From positions 1 to 64,000 of the IMG/VR virus record IMGVR_UViG_3300008110_000025: DNA of 64,000 nucleotides, one strand, 5' to 3'. The first letter of the stretch is position 1; each line of letters starts with the position of its first letter. Below are positions 1-10,900 of this stretch, piece after piece. The stretch is from a virus. Below the pieces are notes generated by a model. It had not been told where the DNA came from. It saw nothing but the letters and a program-made list of their open reading frames with translations, and did not search any database. The translations under genes were made by a program, and so were the position numbers.

Positions 1-4
1 AAGA

Positions 5-184
5 TTAAAAGTGAATATAAATTGGATTACGTGTTAATTCGAAGAGCCTTCCACTGACAGTGAGACGTTTCTTTAGGTTTGATTTCATCCCTGTGTCATC
101 TGATGGCTCTTCTGATAGAAGTCTTCTACGTTCTACACGTAGATTGATAACTTCTATTTGTTGATCTAAGGTTAGTTCTTCCAT
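5..184 (-). CDS. hypothetical protein (59 aa, MEELTLDQQIEVINLRVERR...)
   Basis: Translated by hand: ATG at 184, TAA at 7-5, A-rich upstream region; below the ORF-track cutoff. Confidence 0.6.
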   Translation of the reverse strand: MEELTLDQQIEVINLRVERRRLLSEEPSDDTGMKSNLKKRLTVSGRLFELTRNPIYIHF

Positions 185-186
185 AG

Positions 187-279
187 TTAATAATTAGAAT
201 TGTTTTTAGTTTGTTTGTAAAGATCATAGATAGCATGTGCTAACAAGCACCCTACTATTGTTAGAAATAAGGTAAACAT
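187..279 (-). CDS. putative small membrane peptide (30 aa, MFTLFLTIVGCLLAHAIYDLYKQTKNNSNY)
   Basis: Translated by hand; hydrophobic N-terminus; fills the gap between tRNA-Arg and the next ORF. Confidence 0.4.
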   Translation of the reverse strand: MFTLFLTIVGCLLAHAIYDLYKQTKNNSNY

Positions 280-299
280 GGTTAATAAAATTTGATTAG

Positions 300-373
300 T
301 ACCCCCATCAGGATTCGAACCTGAGGCCCACAGATTAGAAATCTGTTGCTCTATCCAACTGAGCTATGGAGGC
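300..373 (-). tRNA. tRNA-Arg, anticodon UCU
   Basis: Reverse complement folds to a canonical cloverleaf: GCCTCCA/TGGGGGT acceptor, GCTC/GAGC D stem, ACAGA-TT-TCT-AA-TCTGT anticodon arm, TCAGG-TTCGAAT-CCTGA T arm; no encoded CCA. Confidence 0.95.
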
Positions 374-378
374 ATTTG

Positions 379-471
379 TAGTCAGGACAGGACTCGAACC
401 TGTAAAAAGGTAGGCTATGTACACTTGCCGTTTGAAGAACACTTGCAATTACTCATTTCTGCCACCTGACT
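379..471 (-). ncRNA. tRNA-like RNA (93 nt) with degenerate anticodon arm
   Basis: Perfect AGTCAGG/CCTGACT acceptor, GCAG/TTGC D stem and ACAGG-TTCGAGT-CCTGT T arm; the central ~40 nt give at most 3 bp of anticodon stem. Confidence 0.75.
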
Positions 472-473
472 AA

Positions 474-506
474 AAATAGAAGAGGGGGAGTCAGCTACAC
501 CCCCCT
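474..506 (-). terminator. putative intrinsic terminator / processing hairpin
   Basis: Minus strand AGGGGG-(GTGTAGCTGACT)-CCCCCT followed by CTTCTATTTTT, immediately 5' of the tRNA-like RNA. Confidence 0.5.
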
Positions 507-565
507 GTTGAATTACTGGTCAGACTTAAAAGTTACTCGAGTCGTTTTAAATCCAAGGTTTCTGT

Positions 566-862
566 TCACTCTTCTAAATTTTCAAAGTTATTATTCTCAT
601 CTATATCTGATATCTTAAGTCCCCACATGAGATCAAACCATTGATACTCTGTGTCAGCCTTGTAGTAGCTAGACTTAAGCTCTCTCTTTAGATAACGAAT
701 AGCATAATCCTTGAATGCATTTGATTGTTCTTGAGTCATTGTAAACTCGTGATACCACTCATCTTTACGATCTACTATATCATCGTAAGTCTGTGGTATA
801 TGAGCATACTCAAACATCTTGTTAATCAAATGCTTTACTATTTTCTGTGCATCTACTCTCAT
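566..862 (-). CDS. hypothetical protein
   Basis: 98-aa ORF, translationally coupled to its neighbours. Confidence 0.8.
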   Translation of the reverse strand: MRVDAQKIVKHLINKMFEYAHIPQTYDDIVDRKDEWYHEFTMTQEQSNAFKDYAIRYLKRELKSSYYKADTEYQWFDLMWGLKISDIDENNNFENLEE

Positions 863-1140
863 TGATCATCCCTCCAATCATCTGCATGATCATCTAAATA
901 ACACTGTCTACATAGACTACTTTCATCATGTACTTTTTGATAGCACTCATCATAGAAATCATCTTCTGTCATGTGCTCATCTGGATTAGCAATAGATTTA
1001 TTAGCCTCTTCAGCTTTTGATGCTGCCATGCTTCTTGCAATATCCCCCATTTCTGCAGTATCACAGTATGGACAGTACTCATGTAGCTGATTCCAGGGTG
1101 CTTTTGGGTCATGTTCTGCCCCTAATGGATAATTACTCAT
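859..1140 (-). CDS. hypothetical protein, putative Zn-binding (CxxC ... CxxC)
   Basis: MSNYPLGAEHDPKAPWNQ N-terminus typical of Bacteroidota phage small proteins; CPYC and CRQC motifs. Confidence 0.8.
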   Translation of the reverse strand: MSNYPLGAEHDPKAPWNQLHEYCPYCDTAEMGDIARSMAASKAEEANKSIANPDEHMTEDDFYDECYQKVHDESSLCRQCYLDDHADDWRDDQ

Positions 1141-1483
1141 GTTCTTGTAGTTTTTGATTTAGTAATGTGTCTAATTTACCTTCGTTGTATAGTTGTAATA
1201 ACAGGACAATATCAGGGAGTTTATAGTAATCTAACTCAGCTATTAGTTTAGCAAACTTGTCCATTGTCTCTGTTACCAAAGGCATTTGAACTCCGTCTGC
1301 ATCCCACATAGCCATGATAGTTTTACCATGCTCCTTAACAATAGTATCAACAGTTTGCTTTAATGATTGCTTAGTTCTGTGATTATAAAACCACTTGATA
1401 CTTTCGCAATTATCTGATGCATACACTGATACCTGTAACCACATTAATAGATTAAGTACTTTGATTTGCTCTTCTTGTGTCAT
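1133..1483 (-). CDS. hypothetical protein
   Basis: 116-aa ORF directly downstream of the polymerase. Confidence 0.8.
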   Translation of the reverse strand: MTQEEQIKVLNLLMWLQVSVYASDNCESIKWFYNHRTKQSLKQTVDTIVKEHGKTIMAMWDADGVQMPLVTETMDKFAKLIAELDYYKLPDIVLLLQLYNEGKLDTLLNQKLQEHE

Positions 1484-1484
1484 G

Positions 1485-3392
1485 TTACTTACTCCACACT
1501 TTAGTTATTGATGTCTCTGCTTTTAGTAGTCCGTTACGTATGATTTTATTAGCAGCTCTCTCCATCTCCTCAGTCATATAGATCTTCCATTCCTCTGCAA
1601 AATACTCAGGGCAAATGGTGTCTATCTGATCGTGAACAGTCATTACTATCTTAACAGGATAATTATGTTTCTTGATTCTTTTATAAAGATATACAAGTGC
1701 TAATTTAGTCATATCTGCTGAACTACCCTGAATTGGGGTATTCTTAGATGCTCTCTCAATAGATCCAAGCTCCATAAAGCTGTCTCTATCTCCGTACATT
1801 TTTGGGGTCCAGCTGTCAAACCATCTCTTCCTATAGAATGGGAAGAACGTAGTAACAAACCCGTACCTCTTTCCAAACTCTCCCTGATCCTCAAGGAATC
1901 TTTTAATAGCAGGGAAAGCTTTGAAATACTTATCAATCAAATCCTTTGCTTCAGTCATTGAACAGTTAATAGTCTCACTAAGTTTCTTAGGCCCCATTCC
2001 ATAAGCCAATCCAAAGTTGATTGTCTTAACCTGTGTCCTAAGCTTCTTGTGTTCCTTGCATTCACACTTCTGTGTATACTGATAGTAAGTACAACCATCT
2101 TCTGCTGCATTCTTCCACACTGGTCCGAATACTAACTCAGCACATACAGAGTGTAAGTCTTCATTATTACGTAGTGACTTGAGGAATACAGGATCTCCAG
2201 AACCGTAAGCAATTACATTCAACTCTTGGCTTGAGTAATCAGAGGATACAAACACCCATCCATGTGGAGCAACAAAACAATTACGATACTCATTAGTTGC
2301 TGGTATCTGTTGCATATTAGGTTCACTAGATGACACACGACCTGTGTCTAGTATCTGTTGAAAGTTAGTATGCACCTTACCATCACAACTAATGTAGCTG
2401 TTAAAGTTTGTTCCAAATGCTGATGCTAGTTTACTCTTCTCCTTGTACTTGATGTACTCATCAATCAATGGATGCTTATAACGATAAGGAGCTAGCTTCT
2501 TACCATTTACATCCTCAATCTTAGGGAATAAAGTCTGGAATATCTTAAGCACTTGGCTTGGGCTGTCCCAGTTAACTGTTGAATCCTTTAACTCTGACTC
2601 ATCTAAGAATAAGTCTAGTTGTTTCTTCGCTCTGTACATTTCGAACTCTGAATAGGATAAAAGGCTCGTGTCTAATTGTTTCCCTAAAAGGAAACTTTCT
2701 TGCTTATTCCTATCAGCTAGCTTCTTCCATTGAATGGTGTCAATCTCTAGCCCATTGTACTCAATCTCAGAGAATACAACAACAGCTTGATTCTCGAGTT
2801 TAGCTACATTGCTTAGAGTCTGAAGTTGTAATAGATCTACTTGTTGAAAGTAAATGTCTATTAGATACTCAACGTCCTTAGCACCATAGATAATTTGAGA
2901 GTCATCAAATGGAGTTGATGATGTTTGAGTAAACCTATTACGCACAGACTTATCTAACTCTTTATCAAGATATCTCTTGACAAGCTTAGCCAGTCCAAAT
3001 CCGTAATCAGTTTTCCCACAGTGTAAAATCTTTTCGCATAGGTATGTATCATGAATGTTTACAGTATCTATCTTAAGATAATGCTTAATGAACTTGTAAT
3101 CAAACTTTGCATTGTGGAATACTTTTACGATATCCTCATTGTTTAATACTCTGTTCAATTGCACCTGATCTGCATAAGTTAGATCTCTACAATCAATTAC
3201 ATACTGACGCTCTGCATCACCGATTTGCAGCATAAGTAGTTTCTTACATGTAAAATCAAATCCTTCTGTCTCTGTATCTACGCCTAATACCTTACTGGTT
3301 AGTAGATCTTCAACAGCTTCTTCAATTGTACATGATTTAAAACTACTCGCTATCAGTGCTTGGTTCTTGCTGATAAAGAAAATGTTGTTCAT
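1485..3392 (-). CDS. polA: DNA polymerase family A (3'-5' exonuclease + polymerase domains)
   Basis: ExoI DTET, ExoII HNAKFD, ExoIII YGAKD; TGRVSSSEPNMQQIP; motif A DYSSQEL; motif B RTQVKTINFGLAYG; NTPIQGSSAD; motif C VHDQ. Start placed at MNNIFF (the track starts at 3407). Confidence 0.96.
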   Translation of the reverse strand: MNNIFFISKNQALIASSFKSCTIEEAVEDLLTSKVLGVDTETEGFDFTCKKLLMLQIGDAERQYVIDCRDLTYADQVQLNRVLNNEDIVKVFHNAKFDYKFIKHYLKIDTVNIHDTYLCEKILHCGKTDYGFGLAKLVKRYLDKELDKSVRNRFTQTSSTPFDDSQIIYGAKDVEYLIDIYFQQVDLLQLQTLSNVAKLENQAVVVFSEIEYNGLEIDTIQWKKLADRNKQESFLLGKQLDTSLLSYSEFEMYRAKKQLDLFLDESELKDSTVNWDSPSQVLKIFQTLFPKIEDVNGKKLAPYRYKHPLIDEYIKYKEKSKLASAFGTNFNSYISCDGKVHTNFQQILDTGRVSSSEPNMQQIPATNEYRNCFVAPHGWVFVSSDYSSQELNVIAYGSGDPVFLKSLRNNEDLHSVCAELVFGPVWKNAAEDGCTYYQYTQKCECKEHKKLRTQVKTINFGLAYGMGPKKLSETINCSMTEAKDLIDKYFKAFPAIKRFLEDQGEFGKRYGFVTTFFPFYRKRWFDSWTPKMYGDRDSFMELGSIERASKNTPIQGSSADMTKLALVYLYKRIKKHNYPVKIVMTVHDQIDTICPEYFAEEWKIYMTEEMERAANKIIRNGLLKAETSITKVWSK

Positions 3393-3576
3393 GTTGTTGT
3401 TGTGCAATTTTGTGGTAAATATAAGCCATCACATTGGCAGCAAATTCTACGTCATATGATGCATTACCAAACTGGAAGTGTTTCTCTCCACGTTCAGCAG
3501 CCATCATAGCTTGTAGTTCAAAGGCTTGATAAGTCCCAGACTCCATCAAGTCAAATACTAATTTCATTCTCGACAT
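3343..3576 (-). CDS. hypothetical protein (probable start MSRMKLVF)
   Basis: ATG at 3576 preceded by an A-rich leader; the track's upstream extension to 3678 runs through a structured noncoding element. Confidence 0.7.
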   Translation of the reverse strand: MSRMKLVFDLMESGTYQAFELQAMMAAERGEKHFQFGNASYDVEFAANVMAYIYHKIAQQQHEQHFLYQQEPSTDSE

Positions 3577-3600
3577 ACAGTTATTGATTTTTAATTGTTT

Positions 3601-3730
3601 CGTAACTAGTAACAAACGGACAGTGTCCCTTGTTTTCTCTTGATTATATACCAGAGAACAGACAGCAGGTAACCCCAAACCTGCTATAGTCTATTCAATG
3701 GTTATTCGTAAGTACACAATGATAGGGTTT
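3601..3730 (-). promoter_or_regulatory. structured intergenic RNA element (hairpin with possible pseudoknot)
   Basis: GAATAGAC/GTCTGTTC plus AGCAGGT/ACCTGCT helix; loop GGGGTT is complementary to upstream AACCCT. Confidence 0.45.
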
Positions 3731-3733
3731 TTG

Positions 3734-3814
3734 AAATCAGGATGGGATTCGAACCCATACCTCTGCAAGAGTTCAACGGAACTTGCAGTGCTCTACCAGT
3801 TGAGCTACCTGATT
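3734..3814 (-). ncRNA. tRNA-like RNA (81 nt) with elongated anticodon arm and no 7-nt anticodon loop
   Basis: AATCAGG/CCTGATT acceptor, TA-GCTC-AACTGGTA-GAGC D arm, ATGGG-TTCGAAT-CCCAT T arm; anticodon arm reads CTGCA-AGTTC-CGTT-GAACT-CT-TGCAG. Confidence 0.85.
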
Positions 3815-3827
3815 TACTCAGCTATGA

Positions 3828-4433
3828 TTAGCTGAAGAACGGACTAGAGTCAAAGCTCTTACCAGCAGGAATGCCAGTAGATACGTTTGACTTAACAGCA
3901 TCAGGCTCAAGGAAGTCATGATTAGCTTTGTTAAACACTACACGAGTGTTAGCAAAGATGTACATGCCCTTGTGAGTGATGAAGTCTCCATCTTTACCAC
4001 GACGTTTAGCCGCAGTTTCGATGTTGCTTGCCTGCCAATCTGTAGGAGTTACAGTCTCGAAAACTTCTACTTTCATTGGGAAGGCTTCACCATTGATGTG
4101 AGCTACTGGATTGATGACATTCAATGGGAGAATCTCACGTCCCATTTGGTCAACCTCCCAATCAGCATCATCCATCAGGTTGATGTTGAGATAAACTGAA
4201 GCATCCTTAGCTTCAGCAGTAAGCCAAGCACGACGAGCACCATTACCTTGTGAGAAACGGTCGTCTGACTTGTTAAAGATAGCAAGTGGGTTTGCTGCAG
4301 TAGACTGTGTTTTGACAATCTCAGCAAATTCCAATTGAATCTTACCTCCATTAACCTTACGAGCTTGGAGTAAAAGGGTTTGACCCACTTGCAATCCCTG
4401 CAATGAGCCACTGTTGATTGTGTTGTTCATCAT
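3828..4433 (-). CDS. hypothetical protein, possibly ssDNA-binding
   Basis: 201 aa, codon usage like the highly expressed capsid gene (CGT, GCT, AAC), beta-rich, flexible tail ending DSSPFFS; the SSB role is inference only. Confidence 0.8.
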   Translation of the reverse strand: MMNNTINSGSLQGLQVGQTLLLQARKVNGGKIQLEFAEIVKTQSTAANPLAIFNKSDDRFSQGNGARRAWLTAEAKDASVYLNINLMDDADWEVDQMGREILPLNVINPVAHINGEAFPMKVEVFETVTPTDWQASNIETAAKRRGKDGDFITHKGMYIFANTRVVFNKANHDFLEPDAVKSNVSTGIPAGKSFDSSPFFS

Positions 4434-4473
4434 GATTTTGATGATTAAATAATAAATTAAATGAATGAATTGA

Positions 4474-4536
4474 TTTTACCACTCTGCATTAAAGGGCTTG
4501 TGACCTTCAGTTGTTACACTGGCTGCATTAGTAAAA
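4474..4536 (-). ncRNA. twister ribozyme, type P1
   Basis: UUUUAC-U^AA-UGCA-GC-CAGU(GUAACA)ACUG-AAGG-UCACAAGC-CCUU-UAA-UGCA-GA-GUG-GUAAAA: P1, P2, P3 and P4 helices, both pseudoknots (CAC/GUG, GC/GC) and the conserved UAA, GC, AAGC and GA nucleotides are all present. Confidence 0.9.
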
Positions 4537-4551
4537 GGGGACTAAGCCCCT
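4533..4551 (-). terminator. weak intrinsic terminator-like hairpin overlapping the twister P1
   Basis: AGGGG-CTTAGT-CCCCT-TTT; the stop codon of the upstream gene lies in the loop. Confidence 0.5.
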
Positions 4552-4961
4552 GTAAACATTCTAACTAGATCAGCATGATCGTCATTAGTTTGTGGATCAA
4601 TCTTAGGAAGCTCAGGCATCCCAAGTTGTTTAGCTGAATAGACATAGTGATCTATATAACCCCATCCATTACTTAGATTATATGTAGTCTTTACATATTC
4701 TTCTAAGGCTTTCTCGATATCTCTATCCCAAGCATTATGGAGTTTACGATACTCATGTAATGTCAGACCATCGAGTCTAGGAGTATAGCCCATGTCAAAC
4801 CATGAGCTATATCCTGTACTAACTCGCACTTTCTCAGCAACAAATGTGATGATAGGAAACGGTATTGTTTCTTCTATCTCAACTCTCTTGATGTAGGTAA
4901 GTGTCTTCATATTAGTAGCTGATTCTATCTGATTCATCACCATCGAAATAAGTGCACTCAT
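4542..4961 (-). CDS. hypothetical protein
   Basis: 139-aa ORF; the true start may be the downstream MKTLTY. Confidence 0.7.
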   Translation of the reverse strand: MSALISMVMNQIESATNMKTLTYIKRVEIEETIPFPIITFVAEKVRVSTGYSSWFDMGYTPRLDGLTLHEYRKLHNAWDRDIEKALEEYVKTTYNLSNGWGYIDHYVYSAKQLGMPELPKIDPQTNDDHADLVRMFTGA

Positions 4962-5460
4962 CAGGTGTAACTAACTTGAATAGATAGTGATTACCTTTAG
5001 AAGATATCAAATGGTATGTATTCGGCATGCATGAATTAACAGCAGCTACAACATCCCACCATCTGAGATCACCCCATCTTTCTGCTAACCCACCATACTC
5101 TTCATATGATACTATCTTACCATCAGCAGTAGCTTCGAATACATATGTCTCGCAAGCATCATCACTGATAGATGCAATGATGTATTCTGGTACATTAGGA
5201 CGTTCACGATACTGACGATACTCTGAGTCATCATCTGGATTAGCATCCTCATTGACCATATCAATGAACCACTCAGGTGTAGATTCTTCAGGAATGATGC
5301 ATTCTTCCTCTATTACTTTATACTTAGAGGGATCCATACCTAATCCAATGGAGTGATCTATCTCTGCCCACTCTCCGTGATGATCTTTGTACATCACTGT
5401 CTTGCCTTCAATCCATGCAATATATACAGGGAGAAGTTCTTTAGCTCTTTCTCTTGTCAT
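4912..5460 (-). CDS. hypothetical protein (probable start MTRERAKELLP)
   Basis: ATG at 5460 with an A-rich leader; MTRExAKELLPxxxAWxEGK is a common phage N-terminal segment. Confidence 0.75.
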   Translation of the reverse strand: MTRERAKELLPVYIAWIEGKTVMYKDHHGEWAEIDHSIGLGMDPSKYKVIEEECIIPEESTPEWFIDMVNEDANPDDDSEYRQYRERPNVPEYIIASISDDACETYVFEATADGKIVSYEEYGGLAERWGDLRWWDVVAAVNSCMPNTYHLISSKGNHYLFKLVTPDECTYFDGDESDRISY

Positions 5461-5553
5461 GATTTTATATGTGTTTGTTATTGATTTAAAAGTAAATAAC
5501 GGTTTAAGCCTCACCGTCAAGCCACTATTGTATGAAGTCCAATAGTTAAAGTC

Positions 5554-5748
5554 CTATCTATTCCACCCACAACCACCATTGTCTTGTTTGACAAAGTTGT
5601 GATTGTGTGTAGATCTTAAATGATCTTGATAATAGCTACTTTTATTAGTAGCACAAGATGACATTAGTATTATCACTAGGATAATACCTAAGATAACAAG
5701 TGCAAAGCTTGTTAAATCTTCAGCAAATTTAGTCTTAGTATTTCTCAT
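5554..5748 (-). CDS. putative small lipoprotein
   Basis: Basic N-terminus, hydrophobic stretch, LMSSC lipobox-like motif. Confidence 0.7.
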   Translation of the reverse strand: MRNTKTKFAEDLTSFALVILGIILVIILMSSCATNKSSYYQDHLRSTHNHNFVKQDNGGCGWNR

Positions 5749-5760
5749 AGTGTTATATTA

Positions 5761-6027
5761 TTAGAACTTGAGAGTTTGATTAAGACTAATACGTTTACGT
5801 TCAGCACGTTCTTCCATCTCCATGCTATATACTACAACGTATATGATGGTGATGATTACAGTTGCAAAGCCCATCCCGAATTGATAGTCACCACTCATGA
5901 TATCCATGAAGTAATGATGGAGGTTAAGCATGATTGCTGCATGTAATACAGCAGGAGTAATGAATGTAACGGTAGCAACTACTGCAATCTGAGTAATTAC
6001 TTTGATGAAATTAAGTGTGTAATTCAT
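5761..6027 (-). CDS. membrane protein (2 predicted TM helices)
   Basis: Two long hydrophobic segments in 88 aa. Confidence 0.75.
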   Translation of the reverse strand: MNYTLNFIKVITQIAVVATVTFITPAVLHAAIMLNLHHYFMDIMSGDYQFGMGFATVIITIIYVVVYSMEMEERAERKRISLNQTLKF

Positions 6028-6029
6028 GA

Positions 6030-6064
6030 TGATTTAAGTTATTGATATTGATTTAAGTTATTGA
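6030..6064. repeat. 16-bp direct repeat TGATTTAAGTTATTGA x2 (period 19)
   Basis: Exact copies at 6030-6045 and 6049-6064, just upstream of the start codon at 6027. Confidence 0.8.
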
Positions 6065-6338
6065 ATACAAGAGTAACACTTTAAGCATCAGTGAGAAGCA
6101 GCTATACATATGATACATTTATAGTATGTATTCAATGTGTATTACTATAGGTTATAGCTATACCTTATCTATGCCTATGTTAAGCAAGCATAAGATGATG
6201 AAGTGTGATACCATGTTATATAACTAATTAGATAGTCATCATGATACCACACTTAATGGATGTGAGAGTATTGGCAATCAATCTCTCCAACACACATAAT
6301 AATTTATTAGTAACGAGTAACAACACGAGAATTAAACC

Positions 6339-6368
6339 AAAAAAAGGGGACGAATGTCCCCTCTTTTT
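6339..6368. terminator. bidirectional intrinsic terminator
   Basis: A7-GGGGAC-GAAT-GTCCCC-TC-T5. Confidence 0.85.
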
Positions 6369-6378
6369 AAACGAATGA

Positions 6379-6678
6379 TTACTTCTCTTCGTTTGTGATG
6401 ATGCCCTGTTTACGGGCAGCTTCAACAATCATCTTAAACTTAGGATGTTTGTTGTGAACAAAACGAATCATTTGAGTTTCGTTTGTAAATTGTTCATCGA
6501 GGGATGCAAATCCCACGAATACAACTTTACCGTCAATGACTTCGATTTCATCGTTGTCTTTGAGTACATCACGAGTAGAGAGGATAATACCTGAAAGTTT
6601 ATTCTCCTTGAAACAAAGTGATGCGGAAGCAGCAGCAACCATGTTGCTTGCTTGTTGAACTGGTGTTTTCTTGCTCAT
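6379..6678 (-). CDS. hypothetical protein, first gene of the leftward arm (probable start MSKKTPVQ)
   Basis: ATG at 6678 after an AAACACA leader; followed by its own terminator. Confidence 0.75.
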   Translation of the reverse strand: MSKKTPVQQASNMVAAASASLCFKENKLSGIILSTRDVLKDNDEIEVIDGKVVFVGFASLDEQFTNETQMIRFVHNKHPKFKMIVEAARKQGIITNEEK

Positions 6679-6849
6679 TGTGTTTGAGTTTATGAAGTTT
6701 ACGAATAAATTATTATGGGGGATATACTTATCCTCCAAAACTTAGCGGGGGTCTTTGAATACGTAGGATCTCACTATCAAAAAATTTCCCCAGTTAAAAA
6801 AATTTTATGTCAAGTTTTCTGTGCAGTTAACTCGTAACATTTTTCACAT

Positions 6850-6857
6850 TAGATTTG
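6850..6857 (+). promoter_or_regulatory. Bacteroidota -7 promoter box TAGATTTG
   Basis: Matches TAnnTTTG, 18 nt before the ATG at 6876. Confidence 0.55.
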
Positions 6858-6875
6858 TTACAAAATTCTAACTAA

Positions 6876-7010
6876 ATGGCTAAAGCAAATACAGTTAACT
6901 CGTGGTCCCCAAACCCTAGAAAGAAACGTCCAGGGGTACATTCTAAGAAAAAGTTCTCTAAACTGAAGAGCTCAAAACTTTACAAGAAAGTTAGTAGAGG
7001 TCAAGGATAA
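6876..7010 (+). CDS. small highly basic protein (44 aa, MAKANTVNSWSPNPRKKRPGVHSKKKFSKLKSSKLYKKVSRGQG)
   Basis: Translated by hand; preceded by a promoter box; KKRPGVH...RGQG pattern; missed by the ORF track. Confidence 0.75.
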   Translation: MAKANTVNSWSPNPRKKRPGVHSKKKFSKLKSSKLYKKVSRGQG

Positions 7011-7016
7011 TTTGCT

Positions 7017-7024
7017 ACATTTGC
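7017..7024 (+). promoter_or_regulatory. Bacteroidota -7 promoter box TACATTTG
   Basis: Matches TAnnTTTG directly ahead of a structured noncoding region. Confidence 0.65.
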
Positions 7025-7028
7025 AGAC

Positions 7029-7250
7029 AGCAACCATTCAACTTGAATGATCACCCCTGAGGGCCAAAGAGTAAGTAAGGGGTCAGACGTTGGGTTCTAT
7101 CATACTCACTTTCAATTACATAGAGTATGAAAGTTGTCCCCGATAGTTGCTAAAAAGGAATTGACATAAGGTTCTGGGGTGGATTACGACTATAGGGAAG
7201 AATGGAATGTCCCACCGAAGGCTAAAGACGGCAGAACTGAAACTCAATTT
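7029..7250 (+). ncRNA. candidate structured ncRNA (~220-250 nt)
   Basis: Eight nested helices found by eye in two multibranch domains; own promoter box; no credible ORF. Confidence 0.6.
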
Positions 7251-7324
7251 TAAACAAAAAATCCTAAGGGGATAGGTGTGCCCAATTGGGAAATTTAGTT
7301 TATCTTTATCTCAAAATTTCTCGT

Positions 7325-7555
7325 ATGGCAACTAACATTAAAGCAGGGCTGTATCAACCCCCATTTACTACTGAGGAAGATCAGCTTACTTACATGTTAG
7401 TGTACGTAGATGATAAGGTAGTGCAGTTCTTAGATGAGGGGGAAAAGTTTGTCTGTCAGTTTAGCTATGAAGAGCTGAGAGGGATTATGGGGATAATGGC
7501 TGCAGAGCAAGAGAAGACTCATCTTAGAATACAGGCTCATATTAAAAAGAACTAA
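7325..7555 (+). CDS. hypothetical protein (probable start MATNIKAG)
   Basis: ATG at 7325 follows a TATCTTTA -7-like box at 7301. Confidence 0.7.
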   Translation: MATNIKAGLYQPPFTTEEDQLTYMLVYVDDKVVQFLDEGEKFVCQFSYEELRGIMGIMAAEQEKTHLRIQAHIKKN

Positions 7556-7561
7556 GTTAAG

Positions 7562-7909
7562 ATGAAGCTTACAAAGATTGATAAAGTACAGACTAGTCTT
7601 AAGCAACTCATTGATGTAGACCCATCTGGGGAGATCAATGAGATTTATAGAGTCGATGATATTAGGCATAACCAAGTACTTATAGCTAAGGTTTATCAAG
7701 AAAGGCAAGATGTATTTAAGTTTGAATACTTGTCTAACTTCTTTGCTGCAGGGACTGGGATAACACTTACTACTAATGATGCTGGGGTTACTACTATTAC
7801 ATCTACTGCTACTAGCAGTGGGGTTAGTACTAACTCTAATGTGCTTATTGACTGTGGGGCATTCCTCACCCCTAACGAGAATGTACTTGTAGACTGTGGA
7901 ACTTTTTAA
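7562..7909 (+). CDS. putative tail fibre-associated protein
   Basis: AGTGITL fibre motif; tandem C-terminal NVLIDCGAF / NVLVDCGTF. Confidence 0.75.
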   Translation: MKLTKIDKVQTSLKQLIDVDPSGEINEIYRVDDIRHNQVLIAKVYQERQDVFKFEYLSNFFAAGTGITLTTNDAGVTTITSTATSSGVSTNSNVLIDCGAFLTPNENVLVDCGTF

Positions 7910-7920
7910 ATTAAAACTGA

Positions 7921-10900
7921 ATGGCTCTTAGAATACGTCGTGGATTATCAGCAGATAGAACATCAATAACCCCCGAACAAGGGGAGTTTTTGTATACAAC
8001 AGACACCTACCAAGTCTACATTGGGGATGGGGTAACTGCTGGGGGTAAGCCACTATATACACTGACTTCTTTAGGGGCTATCGGGCTAACAGACTTAAGT
8101 GCTACAAGTCCTTTATTCTATAACAACACTACAGGGGTATTCTCAATTCAAGTTGCCACTGGATCACAGAATGGATATCTAGCTTCAGGAGACTTTACTG
8201 CATTTAATAATAAGCAAACTGCTCTTGAGATATTCGATGAGACTACTTCATTAATTACCAACCCATCACAGATTAAGTTTGTAGGAACCCCAGTAACCGC
8301 AACAGTAGCAGGCTCAGTTGTAACAGTTACTATTAGTGGTACAGGTGGGGGAGGGGGAGGAGTAACAGGGGTATCTGTTGCAACTGCTAATGGTTTCTCA
8401 GGGGTATCAGACTTAAATGCTACCAACCCAACTCTTACTTTAGGGACTACAGTATCAGGGTTACTAAAGGGGAATGGAACTGCAGTATCAGCTGCTGTAG
8501 CAGGGACAGATTACCAAGCTGCATTGACTGGTACTGGTCTGGTAAATTCTTCAGGGGGTACAATCAGTTATGTAACTAATAACTCTAGCAATTGGGATAC
8601 AGCTTACTCTCAAAGAATCTCATCATTTACTACAATAGGTAATAGTGGGGCTGCTACTTTTACAGGTAATGTCCTTAACATCCCTAACTATACTGCAGCA
8701 GGTATTGGGGCAATAGCATCCTCAAGAATTATCGGGACTACTAGCCCGTTACAAGGTGGGGGAGACTTGACTGCAGATAGGACTCTGTCTATCCTTCAAG
8801 CTACAACCTCACAAAGTGGGTTTTTAAGCTCTACTGATTGGAATACGTTTAATGGTAAGCAGGCTGCTCTCTCAGGAACAGGGATAGTTAAGTCTACTGC
8901 AGGGACGATTACTTATCTGACTGATAACTCAGCTAACTGGGATACAGCATTTGGATGGGGTAACCACGCATCTGCAGGCTACTTAACCTCAGCTACTGCC
9001 GCATCTACGTATGTCCCTAGAACTAGGACTTTGACTATTGATGGGGTTTCACAAGATCTAACAGTAGATAGAAGCTTCACAATCAATAAGGCTATTAACG
9101 ATCTTACTGATGTAACTATTACGTCTGTAGCTGGAGGAGATCTTTTGCAGTATAACCTTGCCACAACTCAGTGGATAAACACTCCATTAAGTGCTATTAC
9201 TTCAGTTGGGGCTGACAACGGATTGAGTTTCTCAGGAGGTAATGTTATCCTTGGGGGAAGTCTAGACTTTGATACAACTATCAATACGTTTAACTCTAGT
9301 CAGTACTCATTAACATTTACAGCAGGTTCGACAGCTTACTCATCCCCAGGTACTGCCCCACTAAGAATAACAGAGACTACAGCGTACTCAGCAGGTAGAT
9401 CAGCATTTTATGTAGGAGCTAATGATAATCATGCCCTCTCTGCAGAAGGTAAAGGCGCCCCAGTAACTACAGCCCCAACTAACTTATATAGAAGATCATC
9501 TGCTAACTTGTCAAAGAATGCTACTATACATTCTAAAGCAAAGCAAGGGTTACCTTTATATGCATACTCAGATTCAGACGAAGCTTATTCATCTATAACT
9601 AGATATTCAACTCCTAGTACTCCAGGTATATTAATTGAAAAGACTACAGGATTAACAAACTCTACAACTGCTAACGCGTTAAGTTTAACTGCAGGAGATA
9701 CATTTGGGGCAAATCAACTGTACAATCTACTAACTTTAAGATTAACAAGATCTGCTACAACTTCTGGACTTGTACCTAACACTGGATTGGAGTTTTCTTT
9801 TGAAGCTCAGACTAGCGGAACCACTGACATTGAACGTCTTGCAAACTTTAAAGTATATAGAGACTCATCAAATAATGGTACGCTAGCTATAAGCACAAGA
9901 ACATCTACAATAAATGATGAATATGATGGAATAGTGTTAAGTAGCAATGGAGAAATTACTCTTCCAGGATATAGACCCACTTATACTGATCTTTTTAAAT
10001 CTCTTCTAACCCCAAATATTACTTCTGGACAGATAACTAGTGTAGGTCTTGTATACTCAGATGCATTTAGACCTAGAATAAAATATGGAGATACTGTTAG
10101 TGTACAGGCTGTTTCCCCATCAGGAACTGGAGCAACCTTTGGTCCAACATTAGGATACTCGTTAAAAAGAATACGAATAACTAATCCAGGATCTGGATAT
10201 GTATCGCCCCCTACAGTAACTATAGCTGCACCCCCAGCTGGAGGATCAGGATGGACTACTGGAGTAACCGCAGTAGCAACTGCTACGTTAACAGCTAGTG
10301 GACAAGTAGAGTATATAAAACTTACTAATCAAGGAACTAGATACGTTACAGTACCATCTGTCACTATATCTGCCCCACCATCAGGAACAACTGCAACAGC
10401 CGTTGCTGAGTTTGGAGAAGGAGAAGTATTATTTATTGCAGTAACAAACTCAGGATCAGGGTATAATAGTGCAACTACAAAGATTATTACTAGAACACAA
10501 TCGTATGCTGGTGCAGTTCCATCAGCATACCTAGGAGTAGATAATAATGGTAAAGTACAATTAGCAACAATATCTGTAGATTACTTATTAAATGGGGGTC
10601 AGTCAACAGGTCCATTTGCAGAGGGAGGTCAATTCTACAATAACACCACTTTATACTTTACTCAAAAAAATTTTATTATTAATGGTAGTAATTATTTTAG
10701 TGTTTCAACTGGAGGATCAGGATCAACATCTACAGATGATGGAAGAATAGTACTTTCAAGTACATCTGCAGGAGGAAACAAATTAGAGAGATCTATATTC
10801 CCTGACCTTACAAGTTCTCCATATACTGATTTTATAGGATTTGCGGATGATTATCTATCTTCTTCCTATACATCTACTTTTTTACATGGAGGTATAAATA

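Follow-up and report, generated by a model that had tools for sequence, protein, structure and literature searches.

A twister ribozyme and two tRNA look-alikes at gene borders of a crAss-like phage replication operon: candidate interchangeable RNA-processing modules

The DNA analyzed here (the window) is a stretch of 64,000 nucleotides, positions 1 to 64,000 of IMG/VR record IMGVR_UViG_3300008110_000025, and belongs to a freshwater crAss-like phage with a complete genome of 87,687 bp (87.7 kb). A nucleotide search against known phages returned similarity for its tRNA-Arg only. The features considered here all lie on the minus strand, where the gene blocks make up a leftward replication operon, and every element listed in an earlier note on this DNA was recovered at its given position and on that strand. 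In transcript order they are:

4537-4550, minus strand: hairpin GGGGC-UUAG-UCCCC followed by UUUU, flagged as terminator-like
4476-4534, minus strand: twister ribozyme, type P1, with a P3 hairpin
3828-4433, minus strand: 201-aa ORF, a conserved gene between the twister and look-alike 1
3818-3835, minus strand: stop-codon hairpin of 7 bp, with the UAA shared between its 5' arm and its loop
3734-3814, minus strand: tRNA look-alike 1
3577-3733, minus strand: leader with two hairpins (fold z -2.6)
566-3576, minus strand: gene block of a small ORF, polA and three further small ORFs
3343-3576, minus strand: small ORF, first of the block and upstream of polA
1485-3407, minus strand: polA, with DNA_pol_A and 3'-5' exonuclease domains
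1133-1483, 859-1140 and 566-862, minus strand: the three small ORFs after polA
485-505, minus strand: G+C-rich hairpin followed by a pyrimidine/U-rich run, flagged as terminator-like
379-471, minus strand: tRNA look-alike 2
300-373, minus strand: canonical tRNA-Arg(UCU) (gene TCT), 5 nt after look-alike 2

A scan of all 87,687 bp found a single twister, and the tRNA model matched only the two look-alikes and the tRNA-Arg; all four elements sit within this one operon. The first hairpin of the leader (3662-3687) is also flagged as terminator-like, and relatives carry a different long hairpin at the leader position. The large ORFs are all open in the standard code.

The 201-aa protein encoded between the twister and look-alike 1 has 1081 homologues, none with a name, and matched no Pfam family, no PHROG and, by tblastn, no phage record. 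Its AlphaFold2 model (pLDDT 79) gave weak fold matches, and a search against the PDB (Foldseek, VIA) returned no significant fold match (best Z 2.9). The ESM Atlas contributed unnamed clusters only, while BFVD listed weak SSB/DUF669 rows (E 0.05-0.2), a faint hint from modeled structures that the protein may be an OB-fold or single-stranded DNA-binding protein.

The twister matches Rfam RF03160 with 52.1 bits (E 9e-10), below the family's gathering score of 67.2, a shortfall that stems from its short P3 and two compensated T2 positions. It nonetheless aligns over the full length of the model, with P1, P2, P4 and the optional P3 in family order and with core nucleotides that agree with those of the family. 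Type-P1 twisters, said to have been described by Roth et al. in 2014, share with the window's element the P1-UAA-P2 arrangement, an optional P3, a P4 with its L4 loop, both pseudoknots and the GA before T2; apart from its score, the window's copy differs in having A:U rather than C:G as the middle T2 pair. Across relatives, 96% of cells in the alignment are paired and compensatory changes occur in P3 and P4. Pseudoknot T1 changes from G:C to A:U in three of eight sequences, and T2 reads CAC/GUG in the window, CCA/UGG in copies of another type (L051) and CCC/GGG in the consensus. The UAA at 4530-4528 and the GA that follows P2 (two L1 nucleotides before T2) are invariant in all copies. High-throughput assays indicate that natural twisters tolerate imperfections except in the pseudoknots and catalytic residues (PMC11662667). 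A model of our own built for these elements (R1) scores the window at 88.7 bits and 18 relatives at 84-96 bits. Judged by these features the element is a genuine family member with predicted self-cleavage, the expected cut falling between U4530 and A4529. It lies 42 nt before the ATG of the 201-aa gene and would remain on the 5' end of that message if cut. Some relatives carry two twisters (L044), and P5-bearing copies among the relatives were missed by Rfam at E<=0.1.

Look-alike 1, which begins 13 nt past the stop codon that closes the 201-aa ORF, scores 58 bits against the tRNA model RF00005 and is reported by ARAGORN as 'tRNA-???'. It retains an intact acceptor, D arm (GG) and T arm (UUCGAAU) and has U as its discriminator, but in place of the canonical 5-bp stem and 7-nt loop its anticodon arm is a stem of about 10 bp with a 4-nt loop. 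Among 15 sequence variants of this family, 96.7% of cells pair and nine pairs are altered on both sides. The D and T stems covary, as do pairs 3-70 and 6-67 of the acceptor, and neither G18 and G19 nor the T loop changes. In the same variants the anticodon arm takes the form of loops of 5 to 24 nt or of a long stem and is never canonical; it may be as small as a 5- or 6-nt loop, and in one relative (L003) it is absent, leaving a bare minihelix. ARAGORN assigns the family the identities ???, Lys, Ile, Leu and Tyr, so that no single anticodon identity is kept. Read from these substitutions, look-alike 1 is under selection for shape rather than decoding.

Look-alike 2 (93 nt; 35 bits against RF00005), which like look-alike 1 shows the acceptor, D and T arms and the elbow nucleotides of a tRNA, has a tRNA-Leu-type frame with acceptor AGUCAGG/CCUGACU, T arm ACAGG-UUCGAGU-CCUGU and discriminator A. 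Its middle, about 40 nt, is unlike that of other copies, shows no significant fold (z -0.14) and contains no canonical anticodon arm. In IMG/VR the frame recurs at 80 loci or more, which together contain 82 distinct elements, and it is widespread among phages, often in several copies per phage and in one case with up to six within 5 kb. Throughout the family the frame stays constant as the middle ranges from about 20 to more than 200 nt (total lengths 71-279 nt); 61 of the 82 frames receive no ARAGORN call and the remainder have scattered identities. Two relatives (L006 and L008) have a true tRNA-Leu(UAA) at this position. A constant frame, a variable middle and multiple copies suggest an RNA that is carried for a role of its own. 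The earlier note had treated this second tRNA mimic as a cut site; given its widespread family and variable middle, cutting may not be all that it does. A comparison with YrlA, in which a tRNA-like domain closed at the acceptor end is joined to a Ro-binding stem, gave a partial match (22 bits against a gathering score of 69) that spans two separate elements, and the acceptor ends here are open.

The position after the 201-aa gene is occupied by different modules in different phages. Across 68 non-redundant relatives it holds a tRNA look-alike in 29, an armless minihelix-like fold of 7+5 bp in 15, a twister in five, a pseudoknotted hairpin in five, a bare minihelix in one and something else in 13. 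Mapped onto the tree of the 201-aa protein, these occupants require at least 12 module changes, and the twister requires at least three. One pair of relatives (L056 and L057) is 92% identical in both flanks and differs solely in the module, a minihelix-like fold in one and a twister in the other. The order of twister, gene and tRNA mimic is kept in 18 related loci as the anticodon arm drifts, which is what the earlier note had proposed to check among relatives. Such swaps at one border suggest interchangeable RNA-cutting sites. Neither the minihelix-like 'CAAGG' fold nor the pseudoknotted hairpin matched an Rfam family. A reading of the 'CAAGG' fold as a permuted twister was rejected, half of the twister core being absent, and a reading of the pseudoknotted hairpin as HDV-like was dropped, as it is a long hairpin of the terminator type with a loop that, by eye, pairs with an upstream heptamer.

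Each predicted cut site, at the twister and at look-alikes 1 and 2, lies just downstream of a hairpin. The one at 4537-4550, which is kept in L001-L003 and at other loci, has a U-run that continues into twister P1; were the twister to self-cleave, the upstream RNA would have its 3' end 6 nt away from this hairpin. There is no space for a promoter between this hairpin and the twister, and the twister would therefore be made by read-through only. The stop-codon hairpin ends 3 nt ahead of look-alike 1 (2-5 nt across variants), occurs in each of the 14 distinct variants examined, where its non-coding arm changes to match, and is without a U-run. The hairpin at 485-505 precedes look-alike 2 by 13 nt. 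Terminator-like hairpins with U-runs occur before the twister and also after the modules, and termination could for that reason fix the borders, leaving the modules some other purpose. The one long leftward transcript of the earlier note is uncertain, since terminator-like hairpins follow the modules. Four riverine metatranscriptome runs compared with positions 1-8000 gave only short contigs of low depth, too sparse to show RNA ends.

The comparisons show that these elements are real, that their structures are under selection, that a hairpin precedes each of them and that they replace one another at one border in relatives. We hypothesize, with a probability of roughly one half, that the leftward replication operon uses the twister and the two look-alikes as interchangeable modules for RNA processing at the borders of its gene blocks. 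The twister would cut itself at its predicted site. The look-alikes retain exactly those parts of a tRNA (acceptor stem, T arm and D/T elbow) by which host RNase P and the enzymes of 3' tRNA processing recognize their substrates, and would on that account be excised like tRNAs. After each cut the upstream message would end a few nucleotides past a stable hairpin and the downstream message would begin at a folded RNA. We infer that cleavage takes place in the infected cell and that it is what selection maintains. One feature of look-alike 1 speaks against cutting by RNase P: its first base is A, and the enzyme prefers G.

A wider form of this proposal, which we advance tentatively and would not expect to hold in full, is that crAss-like phages possess a toolkit of exchangeable cutting cassettes, composed of ribozymes and of tRNA frames directed to RNase P that range from a full cloverleaf lacking an anticodon loop to an armless 7+5-bp minihelix. 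Each cassette would have an upstream protective hairpin that becomes the 3' end of a message, and the frames would in addition set free their hypervariable arms as stable small RNAs. If this is true, the natural job of the twister in phages is to cut messages at defined sites, making it the counterpart of an RNase P site.

Other explanations account for parts of the same evidence. The look-alikes could be natural 'tRNA scaffolds' in which the frame secures excision and stability for a functional variable arm (e.g., a decoy, a guide or a protein-binding RNA) and message cutting is a by-product. The constant frame and variable middles of the 82 distinct elements, with up to six copies in 5 kb, fit this explanation, as do arms that differ even among close relatives and an RNA-library contig containing the exact 93-nt look-alike 2 between unrelated flanks. 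We nevertheless consider it rather unlikely as the primary function, given that the arm of look-alike 1 may shrink to a few nucleotides or vanish, that the middle of look-alike 2 is without a significant fold, that neither arm has meaningful complementarity elsewhere in the window and that a twister, which has no cargo, occupies the same slot. More doubtful still is a scheme in which the hairpins, as ordinary terminators, delimit the transcripts and the modules act mainly on the downstream message, as a 5' insulator or stabilizer by way of a 5'-OH or a structured 5' end, instead of on the upstream 3' end. It agrees with the terminator-like hairpins at 4537-4550, at 485-505 and in the leader and with the retention of the twister ahead of the 201-aa ORF, but the missing U-run of the stop-codon hairpin and the read-through needed to make the twister both weigh against it.

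It seems very improbable that the look-alikes are tRNA pseudogenes in decay, with the twister a selfish passenger and all of them functionless. The true tRNA-Leu(UAA) of the two relatives and the unstructured middle of look-alike 2 point in this direction; decay, however, would affect all arms, and the acceptor, D and T stems are instead compensated and the elbow nucleotides invariant, just as the twister keeps both pseudoknots by compensation. We give least credence to the idea that these are unusual decoding tRNAs, for instance tRNAs for frameshifting or recoding whose anticodon loops have been expanded or contracted. Some variants do have U-rich loops of 6, 8 or 12 nt, yet neither the length nor the sequence of the loop is conserved, the window's copy has only 4 nt there on its long stem, and the standard code suffices for the large ORFs.

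The proposed processing modules have partial precedents. For clustered hammerheads that flank single prophage genes, a role in dividing long transcripts into messages the length of one gene has been proposed (Perreault et al., 2011, PMC3088659; reviewed in PMC6765202). Those ribozymes likewise are self-cleaving RNAs on the same strand at gene borders of a phage operon; here the ribozyme is a twister, the other borders have tRNA look-alikes, for which host enzymes would be needed, the two kinds interchange, and each follows a hairpin. Nor does the window's genome, with its one ribozyme, have several same-strand ribozymes around one gene or short block. Novelty, which the earlier note had suggested for the whole combination, therefore applies to the tRNA look-alikes and the interchange, ribozymes flanking phage genes having been proposed in 2011 (PMC3088659); our literature search turned up no phages in which tRNA look-alikes are reported to alternate with ribozymes. 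Theta (minimal HDV-like) ribozymes lie 3' of real suppressor tRNAs in phages (PMC10879173) and resemble the present case in tying a phage ribozyme to tRNA genes and RNA 3'-end formation, yet they are of another class. The distinction drawn in the earlier note stands: the window's ribozyme is a twister, and no HDV-like match was found in the window, nor at E<=10 over positions 1-6000.

In mitochondria, tRNAs or tRNA-shaped elements between coding regions are RNase P and RNase Z sites that define message ends. Such punctuation was reportedly described by Ojala in 1981, and the t-elements of plant mitochondria by Forner in 2007. A tRNA-shaped element on the coding strand at the border of a coding block is found here as well; the differences are that the setting is a bacterial phage, the elements do not decode, ribozymes occur alongside and processing is only predicted. 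The mascRNA of MALAT1 (reportedly Wilusz, 2008) is similarly a tRNA-shaped module downstream in its transcript that is cut by RNase P, and engineered tRNA scaffolds (said to go back to Ponchon and Dardel in 2007) likewise have a foreign arm replacing the anticodon arm of a tRNA frame, but these are eukaryotic or artificial, unlike a natural, swappable set in a phage.

What twister and most other small self-cleaving ribozymes naturally do in bacteria and phages has yet to be settled (PMC6765202). At the border after the 201-aa gene, close relatives provide a natural swap experiment, with a twister, a tRNA-shaped predicted RNase P substrate or a minihelix in the same place. The simplest property common to these modules could be site-specific cleavage, which would give the twister a concrete candidate function and extend tRNA-style punctuation from organelles to phages. 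A hairpin with its cutter would also offer compact natural parts for operon design.

Minus-strand genes, among them a DNA polymerase of family A that also carries a 3'-5' exonuclease domain, span from about position 7700 down to 1, and the plus strand is filled by very large late genes together with those for the portal and the major head protein. The complete virus record is 87,687 bp long with direct terminal repeats, the window being its first 64 kb, and its large terminase shares 40-43% identity with gut crAss-like phage terminases. The DNA runs carrying the window sequence are lake and freshwater metagenomes, and parts of the window also occur in RNA libraries as low-depth contigs. Every element listed in the earlier note was found on the minus strand where it had been placed:

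4537-4550, minus strand: hairpin followed by UUUU
4476-4534, minus strand: twister-P1 match (52.1 bits, gathering 67.2, E 9e-10)
3828-4433, minus strand: ORF of 201 aa
3734-3814, minus strand: tRNA-model match, look-alike 1 (58 bits; ARAGORN assigns no identity)
minus strand: leader with two hairpins (fold z -2.6)
minus strand: small ORF, polA and three small ORFs
485-505, minus strand: hairpin
379-471, minus strand: second tRNA-model match, look-alike 2 (35 bits)
300-373, minus strand: tRNA-Arg(UCU)

No further twister or tRNA-model matches were found elsewhere in the whole 87,687-bp genome. More than 1000 homologues of the 201-aa protein, all unannotated, are present in freshwater and marine metagenomes; the protein's model (pLDDT 79) adopts a beta-rich fold with weak OB/SSB-like matches.

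Searching with this neighboring protein gave relatives at 9 loci in IMG/VR and 80 in metagenomes, and a covariance model of the twister was built from 8 distinct copies. With this model the ribozyme scores 84-96 bits at 18 loci, 45-51 nt upstream of the 201-aa gene. Helices P3 and P4 carry both-side changes among the copies, and pseudoknot T1 changes from G:C to A:U in three of the eight sequences. The two departures of the window's copy from the Rfam consensus, an A in the L4 loop and a U in the L1 3' strand, pair with each other as the middle pair of pseudoknot T2, which reads CAC/GUG in the window, CCA/UGG in more distant copies and CCC/GGG in the consensus; the two nucleotides directly ahead of T2, GA, are invariant. 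Natural twisters tolerate many imperfections, excluding those in pseudoknots or catalytic residues (PMC11662667), and T1 and T2 are both intact in the window. As judged from covariation and these intact pseudoknots, the window's twister is genuine despite its sub-gathering score. Twisters with a P5 stem in place of P3 occur in relatives (L056:2290-2393, L044:6462-6580, L033:1743-1866, L050:848-973, L034:580-693, L038:7207-7332 and L061:6397-6475), and keep the core and both pseudoknots; some have large inserts, reaching about 70 nt, and Rfam at E<=0.1 does not report these forms.

The position 3' of the 201-aa gene was surveyed in 68 non-redundant relatives with enough flank. It holds a tRNA look-alike in 29 of the 68, including highly derived marine forms with acceptor and T arm only, and in 15/68 a fold whose 7-bp outer stem leads, past a 5' bulge of 12-17 nt, into a 5-bp stem closed by a 7-nt loop; a twister with a hairpin ahead of it (5/68), a hairpin with its loop paired to a heptamer upstream (5/68), a bare minihelix (1/68) and other structures, mostly plain hairpins (13/68), make up the remainder. 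When these labels are placed on the 201-aa protein tree, at least 12 changes are required, and the twister alone requires at least three, forced by well-supported branches. From the gene through the first hairpin, and again in the downstream terminator, loci L056 and L057 are 92% identical, and their sole difference is the module itself, 64 nt of the 7+5-bp fold versus 135 nt of twister. On this comparative evidence, the position is exchangeable among relatives.

In size the 7+5-bp fold corresponds to a stacked acceptor and T arm, and its placement behind a stop-codon hairpin and a spacer of 3 nt is exactly that of look-alike 1. We infer that it is an armless tRNA look-alike; it matched no Rfam family. 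It stands in for the tRNA look-alike or twister at L030:3754-3810, L036:8606-8660, L056:4777-4830 and 14 further loci, all outside the window, with a fully compensated outer stem (UCCCCUG/CAGGGGA or ACUUCUG/CAGAAGU) enclosing the 12-17-nt 5' bulge, CAAGG, the 7-nt loop and CCUUG. Elsewhere (L005:2207-2280, L058 and L068-L072) the position is occupied by a long hairpin of terminator type; its 7-nt loop, UGCACGG, complements a conserved CCGUGCA lying 30-60 nt upstream, possibly giving a pseudoknotted 3'-end structure.

Look-alike 1, which begins 13 nt past the 201-aa gene's stop codon, is represented by 15 distinct sequences from 27 loci. In its cloverleaf frame 96.7% of cells are paired and nine pairs show both-side changes, including acceptor pairs 3-70 (U:A to C:G) and 6-67 (G:C to A:U) and one pair each in the D and T stems; no variation occurs at G18, at G19 or in the T loop. 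A canonical anticodon arm is present in no variant: in the window the stem is 10 bp long and its loop 4 nt, others have loops of 5, 6, 12, 20, 22 or 24 nt, and L003 has just a bare acceptor-like minihelix. ARAGORN identities within the family are ???, Lys, Ile, Leu and Tyr. These patterns argue that look-alike 1 is under selection for shape rather than decoding, and the comparison proposed in the earlier note shows, in 18 related loci, the twister kept upstream of the gene and the anticodon arm varying. Decaying tRNA genes were rejected, as compensatory changes contradict them, and unusual decoding tRNAs were rejected for want of a conserved loop.

Each predicted processing site is preceded by a hairpin. 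One that takes in the gene's stop codon stops 2-5 nt short of look-alike 1 in 14 of 14 variants checked, with changes in its non-coding arm matching those in its coding arm; in relatives, the last codons of the gene (GEIFS type) themselves form a hairpin. The predicted twister cut site lies 6 nt past the 4537-4550 hairpin, and 13 nt separate the 485-505 hairpin from look-alike 2. Were the RNA cut at these sites, each upstream product would thus carry a hairpin at its 3' end.

We consider it most likely, with a probability of about 0.5, that the twister and look-alikes are RNA-processing modules. The twister would cut itself, the look-alikes would be excised by RNase P and 3' tRNA-processing enzymes, and the hairpins would protect the new 3' ends. 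The simplest property that could be common to twisters and RNase P substrates is a defined endonucleolytic cut, which would explain their exchange. The proposal in the earlier note, that a leftward transcript is cut into separate mRNAs at these elements, is partly supported. Alternatively, the borders may be set by termination, with the modules serving the downstream message; terminator-like hairpins occur both before and after modules, and the stop-codon hairpin, having no U-run after it, is not a terminator. The main rival, in which the tRNA frames serve as scaffolds for delivering a variable RNA arm, seems to us less likely overall and fits the look-alike 2 family better than look-alike 1. 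In that family the frame is constant and the middle variable: the 24-nt T-arm/acceptor 3' frame occurs at at least 80 IMG/VR loci, in at least 82 distinct full elements (71-279 nt among the matches listed), and ARAGORN calls no tRNA in 61 of the 82 elements listed and scattered identities in the others.

tRNA punctuation is classical in mitochondria. In 2011, hammerheads flanking single prophage genes were proposed to divide phage transcripts into messages one gene long (PMC3088659), and a 2019 review restates the idea for twister, stating the function to be unproven (PMC6765202). Theta ribozymes differ in belonging to another class and in being placed 3' of real suppressor tRNAs (PMC10879173). 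The literature we searched contained no description of phages in which non-decoding tRNA look-alikes alternate with ribozymes.

Look-alike 2 homologues retain a tRNA-Leu-type D arm, and two relatives (L006 and L008) have a true tRNA-Leu(UAA) at its site. Among the matches listed, copy number reaches six within 5 kb of one phage, as on a 62-kb viral contig (L106:1-4957), and several further contigs carry 3-4 copies each. The deepest matching RNA-library piece, a 406-nt contig from riverine run X16, reproduces look-alike 2 (window 378-470) exactly, but with unrelated sequence on either side, and these foreign flanks recur in run X15, so the element is also present in another genome of that river.
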